A stretch of 64,000 nucleotides of DNA from Haliotis cracherodii (Eukaryota), in assembly GCF_022045235.1 (NCBI RefSeq), contig NW_027266297.1:43152001-43216000 (forward strand), written 5' to 3'. The notes below the pieces were generated by a model. The model was not told the DNA's origin, did no database searches, and saw nothing but the letters and a program-made list of their open reading frames with translations. Of the stretch, positions 988 through 44,537 are shown in pieces (within the stretch, counting starts at the first letter, position 1; every line of letters begins with the position of its first letter). The position numbers were made by a program, and so were the translations under genes.

Positions 988-1055
988 TTCTTAGTCTGGT
1001 CCTCTAGCCTAAAAAGAGGGCAAAGAGGGCGGGGAGCGATGATAGCCGGGAATCT

Positions 1056-2560: not shown

Positions 2561-3707
2561 GGGATCTGGCCATTGAAGAGAGCCAAACCAAACCAAGGAT
2601 GGTGCACCAATTACGTCTTGAAGGACGGATCCCAGGAAGACTGCTTGAGCAAGGCAGAGCGCCAAGCAATGGTGATGGATCCAAGACAGTATTGGAGGTA
2701 AGAGCCAATTCAAGGCAGAAAGGAGCTGGTCATCAGCCTCATAGGGATTCTTGTCCAAGCAGTCTTGTATGGCTCATGCAGTCTTGTATGGCTGTGTTGG
2801 CAGAAGCCACTGCCGACACTGGATAAAGGGAGTGACAAGAGAATCGGTCATCGGAATTGAGGAACTTGGCCAAGAAGAACAAACAAGCATCCGAACCTCT
2901 CCATCAACAGGAGGGTAGACGCTGGCAAAGTCCATAGAGTGGGAGATGAACCAAGCAGGCATATCCACAGGAGTAAGAGACTTGGCTGGAGACGCTTCGT
3001 CATAGTCTGGTACAAAATGTTGCTCATCATCCGAAGGACGGCATGGGCAGAGACGGTCGAGAGATGATGACACGCTGGAGAAGGAGAAGTATGGTAGGAC
3101 TCCAAACACCAGAGGAAGAAGCGCTCAAACACAACCAGGGTGTGAAGTGCGACTAGCAGCAAACAAAAACATAAAACGTCTAATAACCAACAAAAAAAAG
3201 GAGAGATTCACCAAAAGTTTAAGAAAACTATATCAAAAAGTAGATTAACAAGCAACCTCGTAAACATGAGACGCCTGAAAGTTAAATTGGCGACCAATGC
3301 GCGAATTGTGCTAAGTTACGAGGCCCTGAACAAAAATGGAATTATCAAGGTATAAACCACAAACAAGCAGATATATCAAGCAGGGGAAGGATATATGGAG
3401 GTAACACCACCTGAAGACAAAATCTGATGACAAAACAAGGTAAATAGAAATAGAGGAAGTAGGGGCCAAGGGGGATAACTCATGGATGCCAAGTCATGGG
3501 CTGTAATCTGTTTCAACTGTCTCTTTGTTCCAGCACTCTCTGTTAGTATAAGGTATGGAAGCTAAAACACTGCGTAGCATCAGCTAAGGAAAAACAAGTT
3601 CCTTTGAAACATTATTTACATGTTATATTATGTTTCATGGTTTATAACATCATAGATCTCGTCTTTGGTAAACCTAGAACCTCTAATTGAAATCCCTGCA
3701 GACTTAC

Positions 3708-12700: not shown

Positions 12701-15221
12701 GAGGTGTACTGGGGTTTAATGTCGCGTTTAAGATACTTATATAGCAACGAGCATGCATGTGAGTGTGTGTGTGGTTGCTTGTTCTATTCCAGACTAATGC
12801 CAATTTTACAGTGCTAGGCCAGTGAGATACCCCATTCAGACACAGTATACTGACTCTGTGTCGACCAGTTCTTGTTTTAACCCCTTAATGCCCAGCATCA
12901 GGCAGGGTAACAATAAGTACCATCTTCTAACATTTTTTCAAATGACGACTGCCGGGGATCGAAACCCCCGACTTCACTCTCTACAGGCAGATGCTCTACC
13001 AGACACTGACATTCTTTATTGTAAACGTCCTTTCGTACTCACTGACATTCGTTATTGTAAACATCCTTTCCCGCTCACTGACATTCTTTATTGTAAACGT
13101 CCTTCCGTGCTCACTGACGTTCTTTATTGTAAACGTCCTTTCGTACTCACTGACGTTCGTTATTGTAAACGTCCTTTCGCCCCCAAGGACTTTCATTATT
13201 GTAAACGTCCTTTCGTGCTCACTGACGTTCTTTATTGTAAACGTCCTTTCGTGCTCACTGATGTTCTTTATTGTAAAGTCATTTCTTGCTCACTGACATT
13301 CTTTATTGTAAACGTCCTTTCGTGCTCACTGTCAAACTTTATTGTAAATGTCCTTTCATGCTCAATGACATTCTTTATTGTAAAGTCCTTTCGTGCTCAC
13401 TGAATTTCTTTCGAACACATTGTTCTTTCTTTTCTTATGACATCTTTTCGTAACATTTGACTATTAATATTAATACTTTCGACCTTTATTTCAACTTTGT
13501 ATTTGTTTAACCTGCATCTGTTTGTTTTGTGTTTTGACCTTTATTAGTAACATTAAGTTCTTTATTCGCAATATTTGACCTTTATCGTGTAATTTTGTCC
13601 TTTTTTTTCAACTTTGTATTTTTTATAAAAAAAATGGCCGCCCATAAAGAGCACCTGATTGTCTTAAAAACGTTAAAAAATGCTACCATTTACTCACAAA
13701 TGAAGGAATCATGGCTGAAAAGGGTGGGGACAAAAGTCACCAATTCCAAAGAACTTTCCCCTTCAAATCTTCAACAAAAGTGTCTTAAATCTGAAATACA
13801 AAAGAAAATAAACATCTGTTATTTCATTGTCCTCTAGAACTTAAAACAACGGAAACAACTTATGCACAATATACAGTTAATAGCAATCATATACACATGC
13901 AGATATTTAATTCAGTAATTCAGGCTATTATGGCCCATTGTATATTTGTCTTACGTATATGAGTTAGTCACATGAATTTGTGAAACATTTTTACCTTGTA
14001 CGAAAAACATGTAAAATAATTGCAATACATTTTATTGCATCATCGTTTTTAGAATTGAGAAAAATGTTCATCATTTGCTTCTCTTTATGTTTTTGACACA
14101 ATTCAGGAAGATATGTTCTTCCAAGATGTTGATAACTATCACAAAACAATACAACATGAATTTCATCTTCGATAAACCCACTACAACATTGTGTACACAA
14201 TCTATAAACCTACTAGACTATGGAGGCGTTATGAATTGGCAAGGCTTGTGGAATACTTGCTAATGTTTGCAGCAATTACATCAAACACAGTCAGTCCTCT
14301 CTTTGATGACAAAAGTTCCATATTTGGTGCCAATGATTTACTAGGAGGTAGCCTTACTACCTCCTAACAAAACCTTGATGATCATTAATTATAACTACAA
14401 TCATAACCATTCCCAGTATAAACTCTTTGATATTTTGGTATTTCACTTGGCTTCAAAAGAGACAATATACAGATATAAGGTCTCTGACTTTGATATGACA
14501 AGCTTTGATAATTGTACTTGATAATAAATGCAGTATCACTTTTGAGAGTAATTTTTTTCTTACCTGAAAACAGATTTGATTTGATTGTATGTCAAAATAG
14601 ATTCCTAACATATTTCTTTGACAAGGAATATTAAGAATCTGCCACGGAGCTCCTTAGAAATTACTGAGGCCTAACAATCTTGAATCATGGCTTATTGCAT
14701 ACACGAACACCCTTCAACTGGAGTTGTGGCACCTATCACTGAAACCGGTGCAACAAAAGCCATGTTATCGGTTACCTGTACACAAAGTGACACACCCCCT
14801 CGAGGACAAAACTAAGGGACTACGCGATATCAAGCGAACGCTTAAATGCTAGATCAATTAACCTTTTCTAAACTGTTTTCCCGATTCAGTCGCCAGTAAC
14901 ATCTCATGAAATTAAGATCTGTGATACGTCGATGCAATGACAATGCATATTAACAACATATCAACGCCAAAGTGCGTTGACTACCGTTCCGAACGTTTCT
15001 GTCCGAGTTTTTACAAAATTGTGCCCAGCAGTTTGCGGAAGGGGACATATTTTGTGTATCAATGTCTTTCTGTCACTTACTTGCGTATGTTGATATTTGC
15101 TAAGTGTTGCATTTATATTTATGTATGTGTCTTCGCCTTACCTATTTTAGCTGTGTTTCGGTACACTCGCAATGAGAAAACACTGAGTGAGACACCGTCT
15201 CCGCAAAGCTTATACCTCCAT
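3708..15221 (-). CDS. 5' part of a multi-exon gene, probably an invertebrate ankyrin-repeat PARP (tankyrase/pme-5-like); continues beyond the window start
   Basis: Phase-compatible GT-AG exons: 15216-15221 (ME), 11329-11845 (VKRLSSR...TYVTVRNEE), 9704-9985 (GGWFLCRLRNNVY...KIRWLS...DYADEIDPGCIL), 9092-9262 (Lys-rich), 4291-4387 (LHPNPAVHVYRKDPFFET), 4072-4189 (SFVSKYAHSKLVFRAVQMKDYKLLKKLI), 3708-3892 (RSTADETTALHHAV, ankyrin-like). The exon structure is read from sequence. The family call is recalled similarity; no PARP domain is in the window. Confidence 0.75.
4480..7800. repeat. Intronic minisatellite with a ~31-bp core GGTACTGACACAAGGAGGAGTGGTAT(A/T)AG(G/C)A and longer variants, ending in a few copies of a longer unit
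   Basis: About 3.3 kb of direct tandem repetition, purine-rich on the + strand. Confidence 0.95.
10808..11302. mobile_element. MITE / non-autonomous DNA transposon with long imperfect terminal inverted repeats
   Basis: Left CAATGTCATTAAAATCAGATCTTAGTTTTCGCTACCGCTA...AAAGATCTGAGGACATCCCATTA is the reverse complement of right TAATGGGATGTCCTCAGATCTTTAGCGGTAGTGAGAACTAAGATCTGATTTTAATGAGATTG. Confidence 0.8.
12700..13002 (-). mobile_element. tRNA-derived SINE
   Basis: Reverse complement of the family at 46140: tRNA-like head GGTAGAGC...GGGTTTCGATCCCCGG and body GATGGTACTTATTGTTACCCTGCCTG. Confidence 0.7.
13003..13402. repeat. 36-bp tandem repeat CTCACTGACGTTCTTTATTGTAAACGTCCTTTCGTG, about 11 copies
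   Basis: Direct tandem repetition. Confidence 0.9.
13991..14215 (-). mobile_element. Non-LTR retrotransposon (LINE) ORF2 C-terminal remnant
   Basis: 'RLCTQCCSGFIEDEIHVVLFCDSYQHLG' matches the CxxC...EDExH...C..Y cysteine motif at the end of LINE ORF2. Confidence 0.6.
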
Positions 15222-19557: not shown

Positions 19558-20868
19558 TCAAAGACCACTGGCACCTGGTCCTTTGCCTTCGGGAGGTGGT
19601 GGGCATCCGGTTGGTGGTGGAGGGCGATCACCTTCCTGTGGTGCTTGTCTGTGTGGACGGGATTCACCTTCTGGAGGGGGAGGACATCCGGTTGGTGGTG
19701 GAGGACGATCACCTTCCTGTGGTGCTTGTCTTCGTGGACGGGATTCACCTTCTGGAGGGGGAGGACATCCGGTTGGAGGTGGAGGGCGATCACCTTCCTG
19801 TGGTGCTTGTCTTCGTGGACGGAATTCACCTTCTGGAGGGGGAGGACATCCGGTTGGTGGTGGAGGGGGGTCACCTTCCTGTGGTGCTTGTCTGCGTGGA
19901 CGGGATTCGCCTTCTGGAGGGGGAGGACATCCGGTTGGTGGTGGAGGACGGTCACCTTCCTGTGGTGCTTGTCTGCGTGGACGGGATTCACCTTCTGGAG
20001 GGGGAGGACATCCGGTTGGAGGTGGAGGGCGATCACCTTCCTGTGGTGCTTGTCTTCGTGGACGGGATTCACCTTCTGGAGGGGGGGGACATCCGGTTGG
20101 AGGTGGAGGGCGATCACCTTCCTGTGGTGCTTGTCTTCGTGGACGGAATTCGCTTTCTGGAGGGGGAGGACATCCGGTTGGTGGTGGAGGGGGGTCACCT
20201 TCCTGTGGTGCTTGTCTGCGTGGTCGGGATTCACCTTCTGGAGGGGGAGGACATCCGGTTGGTGGTTGAGGGCGATCACCTTCCTGTGGTGCTTGTCTTC
20301 GTGGACGGAATTCGCCTTCTGGAGGGGGAGGACATCCGGTTGGTGGTGGAGGGGGGTCACCTTCCTGTGGTGCTTGTCTGCGTGGACGGGATTCACCTTC
20401 TGGAGGGGTGGGAGGACATCCGGTTGGTGGTGGAGGACGGTCACCTTCCTGTGGTGCTCGTCTGCGTGGTCGGAATTCACCTTCTGGAGGGGGAGGACAT
20501 CCGGTTGGTGGTGGAGGGGGGTCACCTTCCTGTGGTGCTTGTCTGCGTGGTCGGGATTCACCTTCTGGAGGTGGAGGACATCCGGTTGGTGGTGGAGGGC
20601 GATCACCTTCCTGTGGTGCTTGTCTGCGTGGTCGGGATTCACCTTCTGGAGGGGGAGGACATCCGGTTGGTGGTGGAGGGGGGTCACCTTCCTGTGGTGC
20701 TTGTCTGCGTGGACGGGATTCACCTTCTGGAGGGGGGGGACATCCGGTTGGTGGTGGAGGGCGATCACCTTCCTGTGGTGCTTGTCTCCGAAAGCGAGAT
20801 TCTAGAAGAGGATAAGACCAACATGAAGCGACACAAGAGAGCGCCAGTAGCAGCAAGAAAGTCTTCAT
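19558..20868 (-). CDS. Gene A: secreted Pro-rich, single-Cys repeat polyprotein (436 aa; signal peptide, short propeptide, 15 x 27-aa units)
   Basis: ATG at 20868 in a CACC-ATG context, TATAAA at 20906-20911, signal peptide MKTFLLLLALSCVASCWS, propeptide YPLLESRFRR, units QAPQEGD(R/P)PPPPTGCPPPPEGE(S/F)RPRR, uninterrupted frame. A 3'-UTR intron (19196-19522) precedes a terminal exon with AATAAA (~19165-19170). Confidence 0.9.
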   Translation of the reverse strand: MKTFLLLLALSCVASCWSYPLLESRFRRQAPQEGDRPPPPTGCPPPPEGESRPRRQAPQEGDPPPPPTGCPPPPEGESRPRRQAPQEGDRPPPPTGCPPPPEGESRPRRQAPQEGDPPPPPTGCPPPPEGEFRPRRRAPQEGDRPPPPTGCPPTPPEGESRPRRQAPQEGDPPPPPTGCPPPPEGEFRPRRQAPQEGDRPQPPTGCPPPPEGESRPRRQAPQEGDPPPPPTGCPPPPESEFRPRRQAPQEGDRPPPPTGCPPPPEGESRPRRQAPQEGDRPPPPTGCPPPPEGESRPRRQAPQEGDRPPPPTGCPPPPEGESRPRRQAPQEGDPPPPPTGCPPPPEGEFRPRRQAPQEGDRPPPPTGCPPPPEGESRPRRQAPQEGDRPPPPTGCPPPPEGESRPHRQAPQEGDRPPPPTGCPPPPEGKGPGASGL

Positions 20869-25679: not shown

Positions 25680-25804
25680 CAATGACAATGCAAAGAATCA
25701 CGCAACCCGTACTGGTAATTACTGCTAGTAATGATGTGCCATCTGGCTTGGACTTGAAGTGTATAAAAGCAATGCTGTCCCGAGACATGAGCATCACTTT
25801 CATC
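25680..25804 (+). promoter_or_regulatory. Conserved core promoter of the repeat-gene family (gene B copy); paralogous copies at 20869-20995(-), 30000-30125, 38104-38230(-) and 42314-42440
   Basis: Shared block (C)CATCTGG(C/T)TTGGACTNGA(A/T)GTGTATAAAAG, then an Inr-like TCACT just before the ATG. TATA at 25762-25767, E-box CATCTG at 25740-25745. Confidence 0.75.
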
Positions 25805-26308
25805 ATGAAGACGTTCCTGGTACTGCTGGCGCTCTCCTTTGTGGCCACATGTTGGTCTCAAGCACAACAGGACGGAGACCGCCCACTACCACCAACCGGA
25901 TGTCCTCCACCTCCAGAAGGTGAATCCCGACCACGCAGACAAGCACGACAAGAAGGTGACCACCCACCTCCACCAACCGGATGCCCTCCCCCACCTGAAG
26001 GTCAATCTGGCCCAAAGGAACAAGCACAGGAAGGCGACCGCCCTCCTCCACCAACCGGATGTCCTCCCCCTCCAGAAGGTAGAGAACAATCCCGACCACG
26101 CAGACAAGCACAACAGGAAGGTGACCGCCCACCACCAACGACTGGAAGTTCTCTCCTACCTGAAGGTCAATCTGGCCCACAAGGACAAGCACCACAGGAA
26201 GGTGACCGCCCACCTCCACCAACTGGATGCCCTCCACCTTCAGAAGGTAAAAGGCAAGGTGCTAGAGGTCCTGGAGGAAGAAGGCCACCTCCTCCACGCA
26301 GGAACTAA
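25805..26308 (+). CDS. Gene B: secreted Pro-rich Cys repeat protein, paralog of A (167 aa, 5 units plus a basic tail)
   Basis: Signal peptide MKTFLVLLALSFVATCWS, TATA 43 nt upstream, units ending alternately in SRPRR and SGPKE/SGPQG, tail KRQGARGPGGRRPPPPRRN. 3'-UTR intron 26321-26904, AATAAA at 26928-26933. Confidence 0.9.
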   Translation: MKTFLVLLALSFVATCWSQAQQDGDRPLPPTGCPPPPEGESRPRRQARQEGDHPPPPTGCPPPPEGQSGPKEQAQEGDRPPPPTGCPPPPEGREQSRPRRQAQQEGDRPPPTTGSSLLPEGQSGPQGQAPQEGDRPPPPTGCPPPSEGKRQGARGPGGRRPPPPRRN

Positions 26309-29300
26309 CCGATACTCACGGTGAGCTTCTTATATTTTTAACAGAATGATTCTTTTTTCTGTTTACAGAACATTTAAATGCAAAGAATATATGTACACGT
26401 AATAGTGAGTCGGTGAGTAAGGGTTAAACGCCGCTTTTAACAGTATTCCAGTTATATCTCGGCGTGTCAGCTTAATGTGGGAGGAAAAATGCAGGTCTCA
26501 GACGTTTCCCACTTCAGTGAAACCCATGAGCACGGGTATGGTGCTGACAAACCTAGAAACATAATTGGGGCGAACCGGTATTCGAACCCACAATAATAGG
26601 TTTCTGCCATGCCAAAGGGATGCAACTCTGCACAGCGAATCGCGGTGCCTCAGACGACTGGGCCACCCGTGATAAGGATGTTCAGATACTGGTATTGATC
26701 GAGCTACATTTCAGATTTGCCTTCAAGTTGTATCTAATAAAAACTAATAATTTTTTTTATTGAAGCCGCTTTCGTCACACGCAGTAATATATGATCATGG
26801 TTTCACGTTGAATACATAGGGCATTGCAAAATGATTCCTGTATGTTATATATTACATGTATGTTGGAAACTGTATTGTAATGTTAATCTGCCTTTCTTTT
26901 ACAGATGACTCCTTCATAATAGATCGCAATAAAAAAATCAAATCTTTCGTTATGAATTTGTTTCATTAAGTTGGGACATATTCGTTTGTACTCTGAATAT
27001 GCGACATATTGTCCCCAGAACTCTCTTGCTTGGTTGATCGCTTGTCAACGTACCCCGATGGCGTGTGGCGTTGCTCGTGTTTTCAGCTGTTTGTCTGTCG
27101 GTGACACCCTAGTATCAAGGCCGAAATGAGACAGTTCGATCATAGCTCGACGTTTTCCTTCCCAATGACTTCCATGGCACGGACGCCTGAGTCAGTAGAG
27201 CTGCCCAGAACTTCCATGAAGGCGATTAAGTTAAATAATGTTCCTCCGTTGGTCCAATCTTGTGAATGTCTTGATGACGTGGCTGATTTGATTGAGTGTC
27301 ATCGTAGGGCGTTTCTCATGCTTCGTTCAGTTGTTGTCTGTCTGTCTCTGGCTATCTGTTTTGAGGCAGCCATGAGATAGTTTGAATACTGTTGCAAGTG
27401 TTCATTCACTCGGACACTCCCATCTGAAGAAATGTCTTGGTTCACAACTGACACGTGCTGTCTCCGGGGAGTTAGCTCTAAGAGGAAATGAAGGGCAACA
27501 ACATTGGCATCGCGGTTCCAGACAATTTAGTACAATGCATATAAATAGTCAAACAACAAATACACAATAAGTGGATTACCTGCTCTGACATCACAAACAC
27601 AACAATAAGCGGTTTTCCAGCTCAAACATCCACGTCAACCACAACGTGGGTTTTTTCGAAGAACACTTGCCTTAAGGTATTGTACAGTTAGCGTTCTAGC
27701 AATCGGCTAACTGTCAGGGACGTACAGTCGATTACTCTGTCCAGAATTTAGCATCACAAGTATATTGAACACATTGACAACAATATAACATACTTAGTCA
27801 GGTGATAAAGCACCGATCCTCATTACCTGACCCTACCTGAGGGGCCATAATGTTGGGAATACCCTCATTTGTCATGATTAATTATCTAGACTTTTTGTCA
27901 CTTCTGCATTTTAGAAGTCTGTGAATGAGTGGAGTAGGATTTACAGCATCAGTCTTTATTTCCACATTTAAAACTCGGTTAACCCTGTACGGTAAAGAAT
28001 TACCTCAAAATTGACATATTTACGTTCACTGAAAGTGACTCTAACATCAAAAGTGACTCTAACATCAAAAGGCACTCAAGAAGGTGACCAACACAGAACT
28101 TCTATCACTTCTTTAAACTTAAGTACAGCAAAATATTAATTGAGATCTATATTGCATAATCCTTACCCTTGGATACAGTTGGTGAACTTTCTCTTATGTT
28201 GTGATTGTGACCTACACATGTCAGCAAAGGGGTCCTCCCATTTGTCAGACACCCACTTGTCAGACAGTGGAATATATTTTAAATGCCACACACCCATTTA
28301 CTCATAATGATATGACCCAGGCACTTGCAATCTCTTTGAAGTTTTAAACGACTTGGTTAAACAGTAAATATGTTTGTTTTCACGAAAGTTTGCTAGATGG
28401 TGCTTAGTGCTTGTTTTTACAAGTGAGTTCAATAGACTTCGTTAACATAACCAGTTTGTTTTCGCAAGTGAGTACCCCAATTAAAAGTAAACTGTGATCC
28501 CTTTGAAGTGTTTGTACTTCATATGTTACTGTTTCACACTTTCTTGTCACTGATATGTTTAAAGAGTAGATCTGTTAGTCTCACAACTAAGTTCTTTGGA
28601 GTTGTTTTTACTGAAATTAGTATCAATATTATATAAGACATATGATCAGAAGAATCACGCCTCACATTGACAATGGCAAGTCCATGATGACACATGGGGA
28701 AGCGACCACCCTCCTACACTTACCTACATAGGTAGTCCACCCCAATTAGAGGAACAGCTAAATCTTCAATCCACAATGGACTATGCAAAGGCTGATTGGC
28801 CCAAATTTAGGAAGGAATTTATATCATTTAAATCCAAAAAATCAAAACGGTCTGTCCGTTTCAAAAGGGAAAGATGCTATGATACCCAGTCTCTCCATAA
28901 AAGGAAAAGCACTAAAATTCTATACAATTCAAAGGTATACAAAATTCAGGAAAGTCTTCATGGTGATCATGAGAGTCAAGTTTATGACTCTTCCATCTTG
29001 TCTACCACTTTTAGTGTTCGACACACATTCGATGAAAAGGGGTTTATCTAATTTGAAGTAACTTTTTAAGGTAGGTAAAGGCTGTTTTTTGTATAGAAAT
29101 CTAGAATAGTGCTGGAAATCACAGCGCACACATTGGCAGATTTTTCCAACGCAGTAGTGACACATTGAACTGATGAACCACATGGTAGAACGGTAGTGTA
29201 TGGTAGGGTCCAGTGATGAGGATCGGATGGTTTGTGATCTGATCACATGAAGTAGGTTATATTTCCCGACGACGTGGATCGGTGCTGGTGCTCTAAACAC

Positions 29301-30125
29301 TGGTGTGATTGGATTACTTACTCATGCACTCACTCTCCAGTTTGCAGATATCTGGAATAAGTTGTCTGCATAAACTGTCTGAAACATGATCCAGGAATAG
29401 GAATAGAAAGACTGATGTCAAAACGTTTTGATTGTCCTCCATACAGTACGAATGCCATCAAAACAACTTGATATACAGACACGCGCTCTACGCTTCTCTA
29501 AGAGATATAGGTAGTGCTGATAATTCAACTGAAAATTAGAGAATGTATAAACTCGATGATTGTTACATCAAAGTCATCTGGACCAAACAAGCCAGTGGTA
29601 TTCATCAGGTTGAACTGGCGGTGAAACTCGGGACGTGAGTCTAAACTTCTTTCATATATTCAGGGACGGTGAGATAAAATTATGTCAATCGATCCCTCGG
29701 GACATATGTTGTGTTGTACCCTGTGTGTGAGCCTATGTACCCCTCGCCTGAGACACGGGGTAGATCACACAATATACCCCTCGATCGGTTGACAACTTAT
29801 AGTGTTCCAGCTATCTGACGGCCGCCTTGAAATAATCGTGACAAGTTCAAACAAACCAACAGCTAGCTATATTCCAGTTATATGCGGGCGGTCTGTAAAT
29901 ATTCGAGTCTGGATCAGGCAATCCAGTGATTGATATTACTAGCAAAGTCAGAGTACAGGGACATATAACCAAGTCACCCAACATGATCATCCGAGCAACT
30001 GACAATACAAAGAGTCACGCAACACCGTAATGTAATAATCACTGCGAGGTAATGATGTACCCTCTGGCTTGAACTGGAAGTGTATAAAAGCAGTGCTGTC
30101 CCGAGACATGTGCATCACTTTCACC

Positions 30126-30656
30126 ATGAAGACATTGCTGATACTACTTGCGCTCTCCTTTGTTGCCACATGTTGGTCTCAAGCACCACAGGAAGGTGAC
30201 CGACCGCCTCCACCAACCGGATGCCCTCCCCCTTCAGAAGGTGAATCCCGACAGCGCAGACAAGCAGGACAAGAAGGTGACGGCCTACCTCCACCAACCA
30301 CATACCCTGCCCATCCTGAAGGTCGATCTGGCCCACAGGAACAAGAACCACAGGAAGGTGACCGTGCTCCTCCACCAACCGGATGCCCTCCCCCTCCTGA
30401 AGGTGAATCTGGCCCACAGGAACAAGAACCACAGGAAGGTGACCGTGCTCCTCCACCAACCGGATGCTCCCCCCCTCCTGAAGGTCGATCTGGCCCACAG
30501 GAACAAGAACCACAGGAAGGTGACCGTGCTCCTCCACCAACCGGATGCCCTCCCCCTCCTGAAGGTGAATCTGGCCCACGGGAACAAGCAACACAGGACG
30601 GTGACCGTCCTCCTCCACCAACCGGAGGTCTAATGAGTATGAAACACCGATTATAG
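30126..30656 (+). CDS. Gene C: paralog of A/B (176 aa as read), 3'-truncated by a foreign segment; may be a pseudogene
   Basis: MKTLLILLALSFVATCWS plus 5.5 units. Homology stops abruptly at 30626 (...PPPPTG) and the last codons (GLMSMKHRL) come from unrelated DNA. TATA at 30083-30088; the E-box reads CCTCTG. Confidence 0.7.
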   Translation: MKTLLILLALSFVATCWSQAPQEGDRPPPPTGCPPPSEGESRQRRQAGQEGDGLPPPTTYPAHPEGRSGPQEQEPQEGDRAPPPTGCPPPPEGESGPQEQEPQEGDRAPPPTGCSPPPEGRSGPQEQEPQEGDRAPPPTGCPPPPEGESGPREQATQDGDRPPPPTGGLMSMKHRL

Positions 30657-31341
30657 ACCCAAAGCTGAGTGATTTGCAATTTTAACACTTAAACAAGGCA
30701 TTTGAAGGCGTTGTGCAATATAGGGGAATGCCCTCGCTAAAAATAGGTCAGTGACGCTACACTCTGTACATACAACATGAAGTAGAAATATCTCTACAGT
30801 TCTGTACTTTTCAATGATATGAGAAAGGGAACAATTGTTTTAAGGTTACACCCTAACTGTATCAAATAAAAGGACTATTTATCGAGGTTGGAGGGGTTTT
30901 AGATTTACATTAATAATACAGCTTTAGTCAAGCAGGACATTTTGTACTATGTCACTTTACTATCAGGTCGGCTAGCGAGACATGGACAGGTCCCAGCAAT
31001 GTAAGCAAGCCTATCGCTGTCAACACAATGTCTATAATAACTAGGTCACCTTATTATGCTGGACTGCATACCAACGCAAGGTCTCAGCTGAACATGTTGA
31101 TACATGTTTATTCACCTGTATAGACTTGTTGGATGGGTTTAATAGTAGAGGGGACTTTTATTAGTAGCGGCGTTAGGTATGATTTAGATCGCATACTGTT
31201 CAGTAACCTGTAACCCCTTTCTTTACCTTCATAGGCAAGGTAGCGTTTTTCAAAGGGAGCGTGTATTGAACAGGGAAGTGAACTCTTCTTATTGAATGTA
31301 ATAAAGATAGACAGCTTTTCAGTATGCTATCAGTCAAGGAG

Positions 31342-31514: not shown

Positions 31515-32196
31515 CTATCAGTCAAGGAGCGATGGTTAAGCAGAACGGACGTGTTTGAGTATAATTGTTGTTAACAATAAATGTACACATCGCTAAAAGC
31601 ATTGGAACACAGTGTCTCCTATCAGTCAGCGCGCGACCCTCGGAGAGAGTGGACGTGTTTGAAAGTCGTCTGTGAATCTTTTCAAGTACAGATTATCTCA
31701 CGACCTAAGGTAATAGTTGAAAGTTGAATAAAACTTAAGAAATAAAATATTCCTTTCACTAACTCAATGTTATTGTATATAAATATAGTGCCTAATGACT
31801 TTAAACATCAAGAAAACAATTTTAAAGAAACAATGATAAATTTTCCCTACATATCATGAGGATATTATTAAGAGAATATGAAAAGTTTTAATTTCATTAC
31901 TTGTAGGATAGAAGAGAAACAGAAACATGAAATCCCTCTCAGACTTGGAGACATGGGCTATGAGTCACAACTGTACGAGTGATCCAGATGTAAATCTAAA
32001 AAGAATTGAGTTACTAGCTAACCATGTCGGTATCATAAAAAACGTATGCAAGGTCGTAGTTAACTTTTTTTTACAAGAAGGGGGCGGGGGGGGGGGGGGG
32101 GGGGGCAAATATTTGTACAAGTATCACTTGTCCCCAACTTGTATTTTCATGATTCAAATAAAACTGTTTTCTATAATTACCCCCGACTGGCTACGG

Positions 32197-34940
32197 CACT
32201 GGTATGCTTGCAATCAATGTAACAGAGTGTTTACACAGAATCACAATCTTCTCCGACATATAAGAACAACCAGAGGTATGAGTGTAATCAATGTGGCAAG
32301 TCTTATGCACGCATGGATAAATACAAAAGCCACAGTTGTCAACCGAGCCTGAAGAGACCCAGCCAGCCAACTAATACACGCAACGTTTGTGGTCATGTTC
32401 GGTGTTTCTTGTGAGCCATGTTCCACAAAGGGACGAGAATGAAGACAATGCCATCGTCCACTGCCCGAGAGATTCTATTCTCGACGTGTGGATCAGTGTG
32501 ATAGCTGCCTAGCCGACGGGAGAGATATAAGGAGAGGCGACTTAACCAGGTTCGTGGGTCGGCGCTGGAAGGGTCACTGAGGACTACAACACTGACTCCC
32601 AGTGAAACAGACAGCCTTGACATTCTTAAGTTTGTGGCGAATGAACAATTCAACATAGAGACTTTATAACATGAATTTCTCAAAGCAAAAACTAGGTATG
32701 AAATGGTTTCTGACCTTAAAAATCTAATACATCAAATATAATGAAAACAATGAAAGCATTTTGTCAGAACCCACCCTCCGAACAACACGTTTCTGGACCC
32801 ACAATTCAAATGAAATAGAATCACTTTTAGCTGAAGTTTTTCAGAAATTATATAAAGACTCCCAAGAGTTTCAGGCCGCGGGGAGTGGATGGATATTAAA
32901 TCGTATTATCCATATAGAAGTTAATACAGCTGAATATACCCCCTGTCAGGGAGTAGTTACTTTCCCCTTCCTAAATATCTCGCGAATAAAAAGGCCATTT
33001 TGAACATACAAAACCAGGATAAAAAATGCTTTATTTGGTCCACTTTGGCTGCTTTACATCCAACAGATCATGCCAACAGAGTGAGCCATTATCAGCAGTA
33101 TGAAAATGAACTTTATCTCAATGGCATTGAAATGCCAGTACCTCTATCACAAATTCACAAAGTCGAAAAGCAAAACCAAATTTCTATCAACGTATTTGGT
33201 TATAAAAAAGAAGAAGGGGTGTTCCCATTGCATATCAGTAAACTCCATTTTAAATCAGAGGTAGATTTATTATTGCTTAGTGAGGGGGACAAAAGGCATT
33301 TCAGTTTGATAAGGAATTTTAGTCGTCTCATGGGGGATAGGACAAAATACGGTCATACAACATTTTAATGCAGACGTTGTCTTCTGGGGTTATGAGGCAG
33401 GATTTGTAGGAAAACCATATACCCCATTGCTTTGATCATAGCATTCAAAAAGTTTAAATGTCAGAAAGTGATGATGACATATCGGTCAAATCCAAGCATA
33501 TCCATAGACTCCTTTATGTCCCATTCGTTATTGAATCGGTTGCAAAGAAGGTCATGGGTTGCAAGGGTAATCCAAGTCAATCCCTTACTTCAATATATCA
33601 GAAACATGAACCATCAGGGTTTTCATACAAGATCGTGAGTTCAGATTCTGGCTACAGTAAACCTGCTGTGACGTACAGTACAGTACACACTGTATCCAGC
33701 AGTTCATTCAGCGTCTTGCGAAGGAATAAATGGATCTTGATAAAATACTAGAAAATGTAGTTCCAATGAACTCAACAAATGAACAAGAACAACCATTTCA
33801 AATGGCTACGGTTTGCCATATTTGTAAAGAGGACCTTGGTCTTGACCTGTTCGAGATAATGATCTCATCACTGGTCAATATCGAGGAGCATCAAATCAAT
33901 TGTGCAAATTACAATTTCAGTTTAGAAAGGCCAAAGGTCAAAACGTAAGTTTTAACGTTTCTATATTCTTGTCAAAATTTGAAAGGTTATGATTCCCACA
34001 ACACATATCATGGCAGGGTTGATTGTATAGCAAACAGTTTGGAAAAATACATATCTTCCTCACTAGGTTGTCTGAGATTTATTGATTCTCTCCAGTTTCT
34101 GAGCGCTCCCTTGGACAAATTAGTGAATAACATGACCAATGATTGCAAGAGCAAGTCTGGAATTCTGAACATGGAGAATCTAAATTCAAACAGTTAAAAC
34201 AGGAAACTTCTGATAATGTGCAAATTTGATCGACTTATGAGAAAATGGAATTATCCTTATGACTTCATGGATGATGAATTAAAATTTGATTTAACTGAAC
34301 CTCCAAAGAATTTTTCTTCAGTTTATTGACAGACAGTCATATATCCCACGCTGACTAGATCCTAACACCTTTATCAAGCAATAGATAATCCATGGTATTG
34401 CTTGATAAAGGTGTTAGGATCTACACCGAAACGTCGCACTAATTGTAATAAAGAAGTTGTTCATCCATAGAACTCGTCTTACTTCATCACTCCAACTTCT
34501 AAATGCCACTGAAAGAAGTTCCATAAAACCAACCCTCAGAGTCTAACAAAAAAGTGTTCGGCAAGTTTAAAGATGAAGCTGAAGTTTACCCCAAGATTTC
34601 ATTCTGTGGTCTTTGGCCTAAACTGTATTCTTATGCTGTTGAAGCTCTTAAGAAAGATCAGGAAACTGATGATCCAAATTGTGTTATTAAAGAGGAGCAA
34701 AAAGCCAAAGGAACTTCAAAAACTGTAATTAAAAGAAAACTGAGACATAAAATGTACAAACAATGCCTCATAAAGCATACTCAGTTCAGACACCAGATGA
34801 CACAAGTTCAGAGTCGTACCCATCAGCTTTATACCGTTCAAATCAATAAAATCAGTCTATCCCCTTTTGATGATAAAATGCCTGTCCTGGAAGACGGGGT
34901 AGACACATTAGCTCACGGACATTATACAATCAAGTCTTAA
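32197..34940 (+). pseudogene. Polinton/Maverick-type protein-primed DNA polymerase B with N-terminal C2H2 fingers; frameshifted and internally deleted
   Basis: YACNQCNRVFTQNHNLLRH; GSGWIL; GSSYFPLP..LANKKAILNIQNQDKKCFIWSTLAAL; ISINVFGY; CHICKEDL; NLKGYDSH; LRFIDSLQFLSAPLDKLV; YPYDFMD; GKFKDE; KLYSY; KAKG; KISLSPFDDK..LEDGVDTLAHGHY. Confidence 0.85.
34356..34520 (+). mobile_element. Probable Penelope-like element pLTR fragment with an inverted 5' duplication, located at the PolB deletion
   Basis: Perfect 28-bp inverted repeat (34356-34383 / 34396-34423). The right arm continues as CTTGATAAAG-GTGT-taggatct-ACAC-CGAAACG, resembling a PLE hammerhead-like core, followed by AATAAA. Confidence 0.45.
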
Positions 34941-36455: not shown

Positions 36456-38103
36456 CATCCGGTTGGTGGTGGAGGGCCGTCACCTTCCTGTGGTACTTGT
36501 CTGCGTGGGCAAGATTCACCTTCTGAAGGGGGAGGACATCCGGTTGGTGGTGGAGGGCGATCACCTTCCTGTGGTACTTGTCTGCGGGGGCAGGATTCAC
36601 CTTCAGGAGGGGGTAGACATCCGGTTGGTGGCGGTCACCTTCGTGTTGTGCTTGTCTGCGGTTTTCACCTTCGGGAGCTGGAGGATATCCGGTTGGTGGT
36701 AAAAGGTGGTCACCTTCCTGTGGTACTTGTCTGTGTGGGCAGGATTCACCTTCGGGAGGTGGAGGACATCCGGTTGGTGGTGGAGGGCCGTCACATAACT
36801 GTTGTGTTTGTCTTCGTGGACGGAATTCACCTTCTGGAGGGAGAGGACATCCGGTTGGGGGTGGAGGGACGTCACCTTCCTGTGGTGTTTGTCCTCGTGG
36901 ACGGGATTCGCCTTCTGGAGGGGGAGGACATCCGGTTGGTGTTGGAGGGCGGTCACCTTCCTGTTGTATTTGTCCACGTGGGCGGGATTCACCTTCGGGA
37001 GGGGGTGGACATCCGGTTGGTCCCGGTCATCTTCGTGTTGTGCTTGTCTGCGTGAGCGGGATTCACTTTCTGGAGGGGGAGGACATCCGGTTGGTGTTGG
37101 AGGGCAGTCACCTTCCTGTTGTACTTCTCTGTGTGGGCAGGATTCACCTTCTTGAGGAGGACATCCGGTTGAGGTCGGAGGGCCGTCACCTTCCTGTGGT
37201 GCTAAGTACATACAAACCAACAGCATAGCGACATGTGAATAGCATAACTTTTGAGCTTGGAACTCTGGCTTACTCGCTTATTCTGCTAACTACGTAATGT
37301 CTCGCATGAATTAGTGATATTGCACGAGTTCGCTGTTAGCGGTATTAGTTTGTTGTTGTAGGCCGACATATTCCAGCTATATGGCGGTGGTCTGTACATA
37401 TTCGAGTCTGGATCAGGCAATCCAGTGATTGATATTACTAGCAAAGTCCCCCGCCATCAGAGCACGGTGACATATAATCAAACAAGTCACCGAACATGAC
37501 CATCCGATCCAATTTAATCGACTCTTACGAGTAGCAATACAATTCTTAGCACATGTCACGGAGTTTGATGTGGGAGGAAAGCTGGAAATGGTGCAGATCT
37601 TAGACGTTTATTATTTTCGTGATTCCTCGAAAACACCGATAGTCCTGACATCTATAATCATTATTCATTCACCTTCGGGAGGTGGAGGACATCCGGTTGG
37701 TGGTGGAGGGCCGTCACATATTGTTATGTTTGTCCTCGTGGACGGGATTCACCTTCTGGAGGGGGGGGGGGGGGGGGGGTGAGGGCACATCCGGTTGTGG
37801 GTGGAGGGACCTCACTTGCCTGTGGTGCTTGTCCTTTTACTGTCACCTTCCTGTTGTATTTGTCTGCGTGGGCAGGATTCACCTTCTGAGGGGGATACAT
37901 CGGGTTGGGGGTGGAGGGCCGTCACCTTCCTGTGGTGCTTCGCCGTGGACGGGATTCACCTTCACGAGGGGGAGGACATCCGGTTGAAGGGGGAGGGCCG
38001 TCACCTGACTGTGGTTCTTGTCTGCGTGGGCGTACTTCTAGAAGAGGATAAGACCAACATGTGGCAGCACAAGAGAGCGCCAGAGCGCCAGGAAAGTCTT
38101 CAT
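36456..38103 (-). pseudogene. Gene D: pseudogene of the gene-A subtype
   Basis: ATG AAG ACT TTC CTG at 38103 with a 1-nt frameshift in the signal peptide, propeptide WSYPLLEVRPRR as in A, degenerate frameshifted units, an interruption at ~37205-37665 and truncation at 36456. TATA at 38141-38146. Confidence 0.85.
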
Positions 38104-39811
38104 GATGAGAATGAGGCTGCTGTCTCGGCACATCATATCTTTTATACACTTCCAGTCCAAACCAGATGGCTCATCGTTAACGCACATTATTTGCTACGGA
38201 GCATGCCTGTTTCGTTGCATTGCCATTGAAATAGATTTCGTGATTAATAATGTGACTCACTTTAAATTGAAAATACAGAGTGTTGATTTATGTCTTATTT
38301 GGTCCTTTTAGAGAACAAATAGCGAAAGAGGCCATGTGTTCTGCGAATTACTGCATTCAACCTTTTAATTGAAAAGATAATATTGCCTTTCAAAGTACAA
38401 ACACTAATTAAAACGCCATATGTGCCTCTTTGAAAGGGGACCAAATTGTACGCAGTATCCATTTCAAAGTAATTGCTCAAGGTAGCTGGCGTTAGGTGTT
38501 GTACAGCCTTTGGACATAGTTTCATCACAGGAGTAGAATTCTTCTGTACAAATTGTCAGACTTCCCCAATGATGCAGTGACAGCTAGAACTTGTCATACT
38601 ATTGGAAATAAGCTGGTTTAGCAGAGGTACCGCTGTACACGACCAACCCACACAACAACACAAGACCTGAGTGAATCAACAGTCAGTTTATAAGACAGTC
38701 ACAGAATCTTATATATAATCAGTCAAATAGAAATGTTTACAATCAATATTTAGAGCATGTTTTTTGACAATCCGTTATAGAAGTACATATATGTTAAGAA
38801 CACCAGGTGAACATGATATAGAATCATTACACAAGATACATGCTACATTAGTAGTACATATTCCAAGGTACACAACGTACCACAGTTTACATGTGATTGA
38901 ATCTGGTGTACCCGATATACTCTAAGTAATGTATTACCCGAGTGGGCTTTCAATCACGATACATACAGTTCAGCTACAATACATATTCCAAAAGGTAAAC
39001 AGCGTAATACAGTTAACAGAATAGGCATAATCCTTACACAAAAGTAGTACAATGGGAATATCTAAGATATACACACACGTTACAGTTACCAATTACACTT
39101 GCAGGTAGTGCCAAGGGTAATAGCATACACTTAAGATTTAACATAGTACAACATTGCAACGTTTCTTACCTGTGTGAATAAAGAGTTAGTTTATTAGACA
39201 GCAACAGAACGATTTGTGACTGTCTGTCGTCCGTATTCATACCTATTCTAGATACTACAGATAATCTCTTTTACTGATTAAACTGACGTTGTTATTGGGA
39301 ATTTTAGTGGCGATATCTAGACAGAATTATATAATTAAGTTCGACCGAGGCATTAATGGTAAAGGTGTTTATGATTGAAGTTTAGTCAGAATAACTGTTT
39401 ACCTGTTGCTAGTATGCCACGAATGTACACGTGGTACGGGTGATTTGATAAGGGTGGATGATAAACAACTGTAGACACAGATAAAGATATTAATGTCTTA
39501 CATTTGTTTGCCTAACTCTGTCTGACCCATGAGAGATGCTGGTCCTGTCCGACATGGGTTATCGGGTTGACCCTTGGCAGTCTAAAGATGATGGAACGTG
39601 ATCGTTTGTTGTAATATTACCTTATTTCACAATTTCCAACTCTTAATGTGTGGCATTTAGAGTGATAAAATATTTGTCAAACTTTGTCCATTTCCCCAAG
39701 TTAATAATACAATGGCGAACGCGTGCATGAGATTAACAGAATGTACATCGCCTCTGAAAAAACATTGGGCCTCATATAATTTATTGATTTAAGAAGAATT
39801 TATAAACTGAT

Positions 39812-41905
39812 CCTAGGCTGTGCAGTAATTTCTTACAACGACAATGTGCAGACACACTGCTGATATTAGCCATTGTCATAGGCTGTGCAGTAATTTCTTA
39901 CAACGACAATGTGCCGACACACTGCTGATATAAAAGCGACTGTCCTAGGCTGTGCAGTAATTTCTTACAACGACAATGTGTCGACACACTGCTGATATAA
40001 GCCATTGTCATAGGCTGTGCATAATTTCTTACAACGACAATGTGCCGACACAATGATGATATAGGCCACTGTCCTAGGCTGTGCAGTAATTTCTTACAAC
40101 AACGATGTGCAGACACACTGATGATATAAGCCATTGTCATAGGCTGTGCAGTAATTCTTACAACGACAATGTGCAGAAACACTGCTGATATAAGCCATTG
40201 TCATAGGCTGTGCAGTATTTTCTTACAACGACAATGTGCCGACACACTGCTGATATAAGCCACTGTCATAGGCTGTGCAGTAATTTCTTACAACGACAAT
40301 GTGCCGACACACTGCTGATATAAGCCATTGTCACAGGCTGTGCAGTATTTTCTTACAACGACAATGTGCAGACACACTGCTGATATAAGCCACTGTCATA
40401 GGTTGTGCAGTAATTTCTTACAACGACAATGTGTCGACACACTGCTGATATAAGCCACTATAACAGGCTGTGCAGTAATTTCTTACAATGACAATGTGCC
40501 GACACACTGCTGATATAAGCCATTGTCATAGGCTGTGCAGTAATTCTTACAACGACAATGTGCAGAAACACTGCTGATATAAGCCACTGTCATAGGCTGT
40601 GCAGTATTTTCTTACAACGACAATGTGCCGACACATTGCTGATATAAGCCACTGTCATAGGTTGTGCAGTAATTTCTTACAACGACAATGTGCCGACACA
40701 CTGCTGATATAAGCCATTGTCACAGGCTGTGCAGTATTTTCTTACAACGACAATGTGCAGACACACTGCTGATATAAGCCACTGTCATAGGTTGTGCAGT
40801 AATTTCTTACAACGACAATGTGTCGACACACTGCTGATATAAGCCACTATAACAGGCTGTGCAGTAATTTCTTACAATGACAATGTGCAGACACACTGCT
40901 GATATAAGCCACTGTCATAGGCTGTGCAGTATTTTCTTACAATGACAATGTGCAGACACACTGTTGATATAAGCCATTGTCATAGACTGTGCAGTAATTT
41001 CTTACAACGACAATGTGCCGACACACTGCTGATATAAGCCACTGTCCTAGGCTGTGCAGTAATTTCTTACAATGACAATGTGTCGACACACTGCTGATAT
41101 AAGCCATTGTCATAGGCTGTGCAGTATTTTCTTACAACGACAATGTGCCGACACACTGCTGATATAAGCCATTGTCATAGGTTTGCAGTATTTTCTTACA
41201 ACGACAATGTGCCGACACACTGCTGATATAAGCCATTGTCATAGGCTGTGCAGTAATTTCTTACAACGACAATGTGCAGACACATTGCTGATATAAGCCA
41301 CTGTCCTAGGCTGTGCAGTAATTTCTTACAACGACAATGTGCCGACACACTGCTGATATAAGCCACTGTCAAAGGATGTGCAGTATTTTCTTACAACGAC
41401 AATGTGTCGACACACTGCTGATATAAGCGACTGTCATAGAATGTGCAGTATTTTCTTACAACGACAATGTGCAGACACAATGATGATATAAGCCATTGTC
41501 ATAGGCTTTGCAGTAATTTCTTACAACGACAATGTGCCGACACACTGCTGATATAAGCCATTGTCACAGGCTGTGCAGTATTTTCTTACAACGACAATGT
41601 GCAGACACACTGCTGATATAAGCTATTGTCATAGGCTGTGCAGTATTTTCTTACAACGACAATGTGTAGACACACTGCTGATATAAGCCATTGTCACAGG
41701 CTGTGCAGTATTTTCTTACAACGACAATGTGCCGACACACTGCTGATATAAGCCACTGTCATAGGCTGTGCAGTATTTTCTTACAACGACAATGTGCCGA
41801 CACATTGCTGATATAAGCCACCGTCATAGGCTGTGCAGTAATTTCTTACAACAACAATGTGCCCACACACTGCTGATATAAGCCACTGTCAAAGGATGTG
41901 CAGCA
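39812..41905. repeat. 65-bp tandem repeat GGCTGTGCAGTA(A/T)TTTCTTACAACGACAATGTGC(C/A)GACACACTGCTGATATAAGCCA(T/C)TGTCATA, about 32 copies
   Basis: Direct tandem repetition with period 65 (e.g. 40271 and 40336). Confidence 0.95.
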
Positions 41906-42440: not shown

Positions 42441-44537
42441 ATGAAGACGTTCCTGGTACTGCTGGCGCTCGCCTTTGTTGCCACATGTTGGTCGCAAACA
42501 CCTCAGAGTGAAGGCAAGCGCCCACTATCAACAACGAAACCGTCACCCCCTATAGAAGGTCAATCTGGTCCCGAAAGTCAAAGAGGCGAAGGACCACAAA
42601 GTCAAAGCGGTGAAGGACCCCAAAGAGGTGAAGGATCCCAAAGAGGCGAAGGACCCCAAAGAGGTGAAGGATCCCAAAGAGGTGAAGGATCCCAAAGAGA
42701 CGATGGACCCCAAAGTCAAAGAGGTGAAGGACCCCAAATAGGTGAAGGATCCCAAAGAGGCGAAGGACCCGAAAGTCAAAGAGGTGAAGGACCCCAAAGA
42801 GGTGAAGGATCCCAAAGAGGCGAAGGACCCCAAAGAGGTGAAGGACCCCAAAGAGGCGAAGGACCCCAAAGAGGTGAAGGACCCCAAAGGGGTGAAGGAT
42901 CCCAAAGAGGCGAAGGACCCCAAAGAGGTGAAGGATCCCAAAGAGGCGAAGGACCCCAAAGAGGTGAAGGACCCCAAAGGGGTGAAGGATCCCAAAGAGG
43001 CGAAGGACCCCAAAGTCAAAGAGGTGAAGGACCCCAAAGAAGTGAAGGATCCCAAAGAGGCGAAGGACCCCAAAGTCAAAGAGGTGAAGGACCCCAAAGA
43101 AGTGAAGGATCCCAAAGAGACGATGGACCCCAAAGTCAAATAGGTGAAGGATCCCAAAGAGGCGAAGGACCCCAAAGAGGTGAAGAACCCCAAAGAGGTG
43201 AAGGATCCCAAAGAGACGATGGACCCCAAAGTCAAAGAGGTGAAGGACCCCAAATAGGTGAAGGATCCCAAAGAGGCGAAGGACCCGAAAGTCAAAGAGG
43301 TGAAGGACCCCAAAGAGGTGAAGGATCCCAAAGAGGCGAAGGACCCCAAAGAGGTGAAGGACCCCAAAGGGGTGAAGGATCCCAAAGAGGCGAAGGACCC
43401 CAAAGTCAAAGAGGTGAAGGACCCCAAAGAAGTGAAGGATCCCAAAGAGGCGAAGGACCCCAAAGTCAAAGAGGTGAAGGACCCCAAAGTCAAAGAGGCG
43501 AAGGACCCCAAAGTCAAAGAGGCGAAGGACCCCAAAGTCAAAGAGGTGAGGGACCCCAAAGTCAAAGAGGCGAAGGACCCCAAAGAAGTGAAGGATCCCA
43601 AAGAGGCGAAGGACCCCAAAGTCAAAGAGGTGAAGGACCCCAAAGTCAAAGAGGGGAAGGACCCCAAAGTCAAAGAGGCGAAGGACCTAAAAGTCAAAGA
43701 GGCGAAGGCCCCCAAAGTCAAAGAGGTGAGGGACCCCAAAGTCAAAGAGGTGAGGGACCCCAAAGTCAAAGAGGTGAAGGACCCCAAAGTCAAAGAGGTG
43801 AGGGACCCCAAAGTCAAAGAGGCGAAGGACCCCAAAGTCAAAGAGGGGAAGGACCCCAAAGTCAAAGAGGTGAGGGACCCCAAAGTCAAAGAGGTGAGGG
43901 ACCCCAAAGTCAAAGAGGTGAGGGACCCCAAAGTCAAAGAGGTGAGGGACTTCAAAGTCAAAGAGGCGAAGGACCCCAAAGTCAAAGAGGGGAAGGACCC
44001 CAAAGTCAAAGAGGTGAGGGACCCCAAAGTCAAAGAGGTGAAGGACCCCAAAGTCAAAGAGGTGAAGGACCCCAAAGTCAAAGAGGTGAGGGACTTCAAA
44101 GTCAAAGAGGCGAAGGACCCCAAAGTCAAAGAGGGGAAGGACCCCAAAGTCAAAGAGGTGAGGGACCCCAAAGTCAAAGAGGTGAAGGACCCCAAAGTCA
44201 AAGAGGTGAAGGACCCCAAAGTCAAAGAGGCGAAGGACCCCAAAGTCAAAGAGGGGAAGGACCCCAAAGTCAAAGAGGTGAGGGACTTCAAAGTCAAAGA
44301 GGCGAAGGACCCCAAAGTCAAAGAGGTGAGGGACCCCAAAGTCAAAGAGGTGAGGGACCCCAAAGTCAAAGAGGTGAGGGACCCCAAAGTCAAAGAGGTG
44401 AGGGACTTCAAAGTCAAAGAGGCGAAGGACCCCAAAGTCAAAGAGGGGAAGGACCCCAAAGTCAAAGAGGTGAGGGACCCCAAAGTCAAAGAGGTGAGGG
44501 ACCCCAAAGTCAAAGAGGTGAAGGACCCGAACTTTGA
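42441..44537 (+). CDS. Gene E: secreted Gly/Gln/Glu/Arg/Pro/Ser repeat protein (698 aa) with the family's promoter and signal peptide but a different repeat
   Basis: MKTFLVLLALAFVATCWS, one degenerate ancestral unit (QTPQSEGKRPLSTTKPSPPIEGQSGPE), then ~650 aa of QRGEG(P/S) hexamers and QSQRGEG(P/L) octamers in an unbroken frame. TATA at 42398-42403, AATAAA at 44605-44610 and 44614-44619. Confidence 0.9.
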   Translation: MKTFLVLLALAFVATCWSQTPQSEGKRPLSTTKPSPPIEGQSGPESQRGEGPQSQSGEGPQRGEGSQRGEGPQRGEGSQRGEGSQRDDGPQSQRGEGPQIGEGSQRGEGPESQRGEGPQRGEGSQRGEGPQRGEGPQRGEGPQRGEGPQRGEGSQRGEGPQRGEGSQRGEGPQRGEGPQRGEGSQRGEGPQSQRGEGPQRSEGSQRGEGPQSQRGEGPQRSEGSQRDDGPQSQIGEGSQRGEGPQRGEEPQRGEGSQRDDGPQSQRGEGPQIGEGSQRGEGPESQRGEGPQRGEGSQRGEGPQRGEGPQRGEGSQRGEGPQSQRGEGPQRSEGSQRGEGPQSQRGEGPQSQRGEGPQSQRGEGPQSQRGEGPQSQRGEGPQRSEGSQRGEGPQSQRGEGPQSQRGEGPQSQRGEGPKSQRGEGPQSQRGEGPQSQRGEGPQSQRGEGPQSQRGEGPQSQRGEGPQSQRGEGPQSQRGEGPQSQRGEGPQSQRGEGPQSQRGEGLQSQRGEGPQSQRGEGPQSQRGEGPQSQRGEGPQSQRGEGPQSQRGEGLQSQRGEGPQSQRGEGPQSQRGEGPQSQRGEGPQSQRGEGPQSQRGEGPQSQRGEGPQSQRGEGLQSQRGEGPQSQRGEGPQSQRGEGPQSQRGEGPQSQRGEGLQSQRGEGPQSQRGEGPQSQRGEGPQSQRGEGPQSQRGEGPEL

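Follow-up and report, generated by a model that had tools for sequence, protein, structure and literature searches.

Can the state of a five-residue linker, repeated along a cluster of tandem-repeat genes, act as a code that sets how many thiols each gene product carries? The question is raised by a stretch of 64,000 nucleotides from the abalone Haliotis cracherodii (contig NW_027266297.1, positions 43,152,001 to 43,216,000; hereafter the window), in which three proline-rich genes, A, B and C (Table 1), are built of short units with a Cys in nearly every one. A first-pass annotation of this DNA divided the linkers between units into a cleavable class, SRPRR or SRQRR, and a non-cleavable one, SGPKE, SGPQG, SGPQE or SGPRE, and proposed that the paralogs thereby supply the terminators, extenders and cross-linkers of a disulfide network. 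The locus apparently encodes a polyprotein family, so far undescribed, whose linkers come in two inherited types. Too few Cys are present on the predicted pieces for the proposed network, and the code as first stated is improbable; product length would follow which units were duplicated, as a by-product of gene descent and not as a tuned valency code. The explanation preferred here, to which a probability of about 0.6 is given, is a gland-type family of repetitive, Pro-rich proteins resembling the salivary proline-rich proteins (PRPs), in which RxRR would be cut by a furin-type convertase, SGPxE would stay uncut, and the uncut linker would have a single origin.

Two linker haplotypes and their descent

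The unit of genes B and C spans 27 residues, of the type QAPQEGDRPPPPTGCPPPPEGE plus the five-residue linker, and is repeated in tandem with a length of 81 bp. Each gene is one open frame, and the leader of B and C is 18 residues long, hydrophobic on inspection and signal-like. Given such a leader, the products of A, B and C are likely to be secreted; their predicted Pro content is 27-41%, and the short units are likely to be disordered. The word 'cleavable' denotes throughout a motif prediction (RxK/RR).

That two linker classes occupy one position of the unit is borne out by their DNA. Among the 23 full linkers of A, B and C, the mean distance over 15 nt is 1.7 nt within the RP-type (n = 17) and 1.3 nt within the SGP-type (n = 6), against a mean of 7.1 nt and a minimum of 5 nt between the classes. 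Judged from these distances, the two types are inherited DNA haplotypes, beyond what chance would give. The passage from RP to SGPxE replaces three basic residues by an acidic one. In B and C, TCTGGCCCA opens each of the six SGP linkers, and the remnant unit of gene F, a fourth member of the family in the window, has TCTGGTCCC.

Gene A carries one Cys in each of its 15 units, and its 14 inter-unit linkers comprise nine SRPRR, four FRPRR and one SRPHR. All 14 contain RxxR and 13 fit RxK/RR, so the annotated claim that every linker of A is cleavable holds apart from SRPHR, which fits RxxR only; gene A also lies outside the interval 25805..30626 to which that description had been attached. Coding constraint is indicated by the variants along the array, eight synonymous against five replacement (binomial p = 0.01), counted in the 13 units left after A5 and A15 had been excluded for length, and changes at both varied Arg codons of the linker are mostly silent. 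A contig end from organism label E has the same stop context, which speaks against an assembly error there. In the broken paralog of A, RxRR is kept in three of 12 linkers, decay having produced forms such as SCPRR, SRPRG and SCPHR, and none of the 12 is of SGP type. The frameshifted start of its piece E (37667-38103, reverse strand) recurs in a contig of organism label C, so this break is older than that split.

A tree was built from the promoter and leader cassette that the family shares, using nine rows, with one of the eight genes on contig C13 included and no outgroup. A split (98/94) sets gene A and piece E of its broken paralog against all other rows, B, C and F among them; these three group together at 92/88, a node that is not starred. 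The shared SGP haplotype, this tree and the lack of SGP linkers in the decayed paralog together suggest that the SGP linker likely arose once, in the B/C/F clade.

Genes B and C are colinear, with 83% identity over 576 bp, and have the classes of linkers 1 and 2 in common. The annotated linker order of both genes stands. In B the classes alternate, and after removal of the 18-residue signal and cutting at RxK/RR the predicted products have 27 aa with one Cys, 55 aa with two and 67 aa with one, Ser replacing Cys in unit B4. In C only the first linker, SRQRR, is cleavable and four SGPxE follow, for predicted products of 27 aa with one Cys and 131 aa with three. Linker state thus does set product length and Cys count, provided that RxRR is cut. 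The body of unit C3 equals that of C5 and C4 is 4 nt away, making units 3-5 recent near-identical copies; on this comparison C has recently expanded one SGP unit, which explains the difference between B and C at linker 3. A simple two-unit duplication in B (period 165) is not clearly supported, the unit-body distances being 11 for B1-B3, 12 for B2-B4 and 12 for B1-B2. The linker states are not random: the classes of B are kept under a second organism label, F, and they follow gene descent and unit duplication.

In the genome as a whole, the cassette has 17 matches, and its single leader heads three different repeat types. At least 12 family starts look intact, four in the window and eight on contig C13. 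The 30 kb flanking the window on each side hold no additional member, and all 29 own-genome matches of the 81-bp Cys unit, a lower bound, fall within the window. The eight genes on C13 (C13:7476861-7523000) stand in tandem and encode products of 556-868 aa that share the leader and are made up of Gly/Pro/Glu/Gln/Arg repeats; none of the eight has RxK/RR, seven lack Cys in the mature part, and the nine sister genes together have one Cys. Three more copies of the cassette are broken (C45:24.30 Mb, C45:7.17 Mb and C34:12.81 Mb), and in those at C45:24.30 Mb and C34:12.81 Mb SRPRR-QAP linkers, several of them decayed, stand between Gly/Pro/Glu blocks. As this linker occurs in two broken relatives of another repeat type, the SRPRR-QAP site likely predates the spread of the Cys unit. 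The pattern as a whole suggests a fast-evolving family.

The C13 products are about 45-49% Gly and 24% Pro, with GPGGPEG/QERQ repeats, and we take them to resemble elastomeric GPGG proteins. Their genes have near-identical ends and variable repeat number, and the set is dosage-amplified in appearance. The polymer encoded by gene F is Arg/Glu-balanced and without an RxK/RR site.

Conservation of gene B and truncation of gene C

Gene B was found whole or in part in 17 runs, none recorded as RNA, from six organism labels. Contigs were compared in eight of the 21 listed runs, four of DNA and four whose RNA status is a guess; in the latter, depth is zero in 11-14 of 30 bins, mostly intergenic ones, as RNA would give. 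Run X7, which shares its organism label with the runs best matched to B, yields contigs identical to B over 25806-25939, 25917-26040 and 26067-26303, most of the frame. Two further runs of the same study, X18 and X19, are almost devoid of the sequence words, an absence that does not establish tissue specificity. Under organism label F, a contig over 26073-26249 departs from B twice: linker 4 carries a silent change, and a Q-to-K replacement falls outside the linkers. Linkers 3 and 4 and the loss of Cys in B4 are therefore common to both; over linkers 1 and 2 the contigs have one and three changes, too few for a class switch (two changes in contig 25888-26102 have no assigned position). Since these contigs differ from B by only about 1-1.5%, the conservation suggests inheritance more than selection. 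The SGPQE linker is covered by DNA contigs with two differences under organism labels B and C, and partly under E. A-type contigs, recognised by QAPQE after the linker, and B-type contigs occur together in all four probable RNA runs, which are bulk runs.

Unit 6 of gene C ends right before the Cys codon, where a dispersed repeat takes over. This repeat matches C34:12875511-12875697 at 87%, with further matches at 73-75% on contigs C2 and C4, and C is without the RxxPPxxRN-type tail found in B and in the C13 genes. Gene C is thus likely to be a damaged, 3'-truncated copy. The first-pass annotation had overlooked this cut-short last unit running into foreign DNA, as well as the GKR site of B. 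The contig of organism label C closest to the start of gene C differs at 22 of 224 nt, compared with 30 of 224 between B and C, and a B-type contig of that label differs from B at four of 133 nt; these distances suggest either fast change in C or a different paralog set. Three absences were not counted as evidence: 30609-30750 (142 nt, the end of C) is without contig cover in all four probable RNA runs, 30583-30760 is without cover in all four DNA runs, which come from other organism labels, and no contig at least 99% alike to C is found in those DNA runs. Comparison of B with C points to constraint on the signal (proportion of synonymous differences, pS, 0.28; of non-synonymous differences, pN, 0.05) and on unit 1 (pS 0.32, pN 0.085). 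Among the SGP units, Cys is lost in two of six, B4 and C2, through two different codon changes.

Several observations weigh against reading the linker pattern as descent with decay. The 1/2/1 layout of B, including the loss of Cys in B4, is kept under organism label F, as function would predict, though little time has elapsed. The frame of gene C is still open, a TATA box is retained and AATAAA occurs 209 nt past the stop, so expression of the gene is possible, and a C-like gene may be intact elsewhere, as the contig of organism label C resembling its start would indicate. In unit 2 of B and C, pN is 0.19 and pS 0.02, which could be adaptive instead of decay. Both genes have exactly four Cys, possibly a selected number. 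Finally, the support for the node uniting B, C and F is not strong, in a tree without an outgroup.

Predicted products and alternative explanations

By Flory-Stockmayer theory, self-condensation of thiols gives a gel only when the weight-average functionality exceeds 2. For fully cut products this value is 1.0-1.13 in A, 1.5 in B, 2.5 in C and 1.35-1.43 in an equimolar mix, below the gel limit; gelation of these products would take C > 6.5-7.5 x A + B, and values above 2 are reached only by C-dominated mixes or by uncut precursors. As a gel needs C in excess, the network scheme depends on a truncated gene that is the sole source of trithiols, and the annotated set of terminators, extenders and cross-linkers does not hold up. 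The notion that paralog ratios tune a network from mono-, di- and trithiol blocks does have on its side that the predicted products carry one, two and three Cys, that the layout of B is kept under organism label F and that A-type and B-type contigs co-occur; set against this arithmetic, the Cys-free SGP units and a linker pattern that tracks descent, it is improbable. Any network that does exist is more likely to be controlled by how far A is cleaved.

In a convertase-processed family of the kind preferred here, gene A would yield some 14-15 near-identical peptides of 27 aa starting with Gln, which would likely turn to pyroglutamate, with the C-terminal Arg trimmed and the Cys sitting between two polyproline runs. 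Because free thiols are usually paired before export, the most likely form of these peptides outside the cell would be a disulfide-linked dimer or a conjugate with other Cys-bearing secretion. Gene B would give three chains, with 1 + 2 + 1 Cys, able to form closed small oligomers only, a layout that would permit a closed three-chain product. The secreting tissue may be a mucus or matrix gland, a guess from the bulk-polymer sister genes. Convertase P-domains have seven matches in the genome; cleavage and secretion are themselves predictions from sequence.

Among the alternatives, the least unlikely is that A serves to make large amounts of an apidaecin-like peptide for signalling, metal binding or defence, with B and C as variants and a cationic tail freed from B at GKR. 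Peptide precursors commonly feature both N-terminal Gln and GKR, and the units do start with Gln and B does have GKR, followed by a tail with five Arg in 17 aa; the apidaecin cluster is also the top look-alike in the Atlas (0.85 for A, 0.81 for B, which below 0.9 are leads only). However, there is no Pfam match at E up to 1, apidaecin included, and proline-rich antimicrobial peptides are cationic, whereas the trimmed 27-aa units have a net charge of -2 to -3 and only the last product of B reaches +3. The sister genes, moreover, are long Gly/Pro/Glu/Gln polymers with the look of bulk material. A gel-to-sol switch is a marginally more doubtful proposal: A, uncut or partly cut, would cross-link through its 15 thiols, convertase cutting would dissolve the gel to dimers, and SGP linkers would leave longer pieces. 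The functionality of A falls from 15 when uncut to 2.18 with 0.6 of the linkers cut and 1.78 with 0.7, so the gel limit is crossed only once about 60-70% are cut, and partial convertase cleavage is described for acidic salivary PRPs, although the basic ones are fully cut before secretion (PMC10454625). Adjacent Cys may also pair within a chain in the endoplasmic reticulum. Less likely again is an extended form of the switch, in which the network collapses to dimers once two-thirds of the linkers of A are cut and B forms an insulin-like product of three chains and two disulfides, templated by its precursor, with the uncuttable linkers fixing the geometry. Were cleavage indeed to control gelation, the result would be a hydrogel that is simple, encoded in the genome and tunable by protease.

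The least probable proposal, very doubtful indeed, is that RPRR is never cut and all products are full-length, disordered matrix or mucus proteins in which the linkers alter charge only. It would suit the eight C13 relatives and gene F, none of which has RxK/RR, and the shift from basic to acidic that SGPxE brings, the C chain having a net charge of -14. Nevertheless, the sites coincide exactly with the unit borders and precede Gln, a further RFRR of A lies directly past the leader, and the linker Arg codons of A vary mostly silently.

The GKR of B may be a dibasic cut and amidation signal; the segment 26246-26305 (forward strand) encodes this motif and then the 17-aa tail, in which there are five Arg and a run of four Pro. 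The tail could be a separate cationic peptide, the upstream chain being amidated. Donor-like sites similar to that past the stop of B follow the stops of A and the C13 genes, and a GTRAG scan gave no match for C and F. Beyond the family, the window contains exons of the ASNA1/GET3 ATPase (55891-60722, reverse strand), of which one exon of 50 aa shows 100% identity with the proteins of H. rubra, H. rufescens and H. asinina and at most 98% with others among the matches listed, which places the DNA in an abalone. Fragmented frames at 319-2729 (reverse strand) and 31912-34940 (forward strand) resemble a tyrosine-recombinase retroelement and the remnant of a DNA-polymerase-bearing transposon. Minisatellite arrays lie at 4473-7834, 13004-13411, 39806-41903 and 57321-57654, with periods of 31, 47, 36, 65 and 20 bp.

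Table 1. Features of the polyprotein family and adjoining repeats, in window coordinates
Feature	Position	Strand	Description
Gene A	19558..20868	-	18-aa signal-like leader; short pro-piece ending RFRR; 15 units of 27-29 aa; 436 aa
TATA-like box of gene B	25762..25768	+	part of the family-wide promoter and signal cassette
Gene B	25805..26308	+	signal-like leader, five units, basic Pro-rich tail; 167 aa; four Cys in mature part
B linker 1	25925..25939	+	SRPRR, predicted convertase site
B linker 2	26006..26020	+	SGPKE, without basic site
B linker 3	26090..26104	+	SRPRR; surrounding DNA likewise matches the SRPRR-QAP linker in distant Gly/Pro/Glu members
B linker 4	26171..26185	+	SGPQG, without basic site
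Gly-Lys-Arg in B unit 5	26246..26254	+	possible dibasic cut/amidation signal before 17-aa tail
Donor-like GTGAG	26321..26326	+	putative; just past the stop of B
Interspersed repeat downstream of B	26421..26671		high-copy, resembling a short interspersed nuclear element; thousands of divergent contigs per run
Gene C	30126..30656	+	paralog of B; 176 aa; linkers SRQRR, SGPQE (three), SGPRE; unit 6 cut short
Dispersed repeat replacing 3' end of C	30633..30924	+	supplies last codons and stop; sequence matches elsewhere in genome
Broken paralog of A	36456..38103	-	pieces E (38103-37667) and D (37203-36456) with inserted repeat between; frameshifts, stops; 14 decayed units
Gene F	42441..44537	+	same cassette; one decayed unit with SGPES linker, then Cys-free (SQ)RGEGPQ repeat; 698 aa

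Comparison with known systems

Searches for homologs returned little, and with sequences of such low complexity their outcome is a weak negative: no homolog among 7988 scored candidates for query P0001 or among 7983 for residues 1-110 of P0003, no exact match for any of four proteins, and, from phmmer against 1.84 billion representatives, one match (E 8e-4) to an unrelated-looking repeat protein. In the literature covered, which takes in few subscription journals, there is no paper with the six family motifs and nothing on the family. Apidaecin precursors consist of a signal peptide and tandem Pro-rich units released at basic sites, and A and B are like them (PF00807) in having a signal-like leader, units of similar length and predicted basic release sites. 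The PF00807 hidden Markov model gives no match, and the abalone units are neutral to acidic with Cys, so the likeness is one of architecture only.

Known abalone and other shell proteins were also considered. Searching 25 of the 27 supplementary files of the H. laevigata shell proteome (files 25 and 26 excepted) with six motifs gave no relevant match, the one QEGD match being to an unrelated protein; this is another species, in which the motifs may differ (PMC6003135). Has-vm2 has a Pro-rich repeat with conserved Leu, Ser, Ile and Val, of which Leu, Ile and Val are absent from the abalone unit, and it is set apart on that published description (PMC2034539). HGAP, a Cys-rich protein of 96 aa, was likewise rejected (PMC11108583). 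Molluscan families with repetitive low-complexity domains (RLCDs) evolve by slippage and duplication (PMC4897951), and the present family is like shematrins, KRMPs and Has-vm2 in being lineage-restricted and duplicated, with repeats that turn over by slippage, gain and loss; unlike in A, B and C, convertase sites between the repeats are not described in the parts of these sources consulted (PMC4897951, PMC2034539, PMC1676022). With three repeat types behind one leader, the family offers a favourable case for studying how repeat turnover rebuilds the secretory proteins of molluscs.

The closest parallel is with human salivary PRPs. Descent from the mammalian proteins finds no homology to support it, none of the four proteins matching a Pfam family at E up to 1, in a search limited by low complexity, and the likeness is apparently one of convergence. 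In this group, of which the basic PRPs (PRB1/2/4) and the Pa allele of PRH1 are compared here, convertase cuts at RxxR and the C-terminal Arg is trimmed; gain or loss of sites splits or fuses the products, and the Pa isoform, in which Cys103 replaces Arg103, escapes cutting and dimerises through a disulfide (PMC10454625, PMC10573131). The abalone genes are similarly clustered and encode Pro/Gln/Gly-rich precursors with RxxR sites at unit borders, their product length being set by site gain or loss if the predicted cleavage occurs. They are unlike the salivary genes in having a Cys in nearly every unit and, in A, a site every 27 aa, and their uncut state is a haplotype of 5-9 nt where that of the salivary PRPs is a single change.

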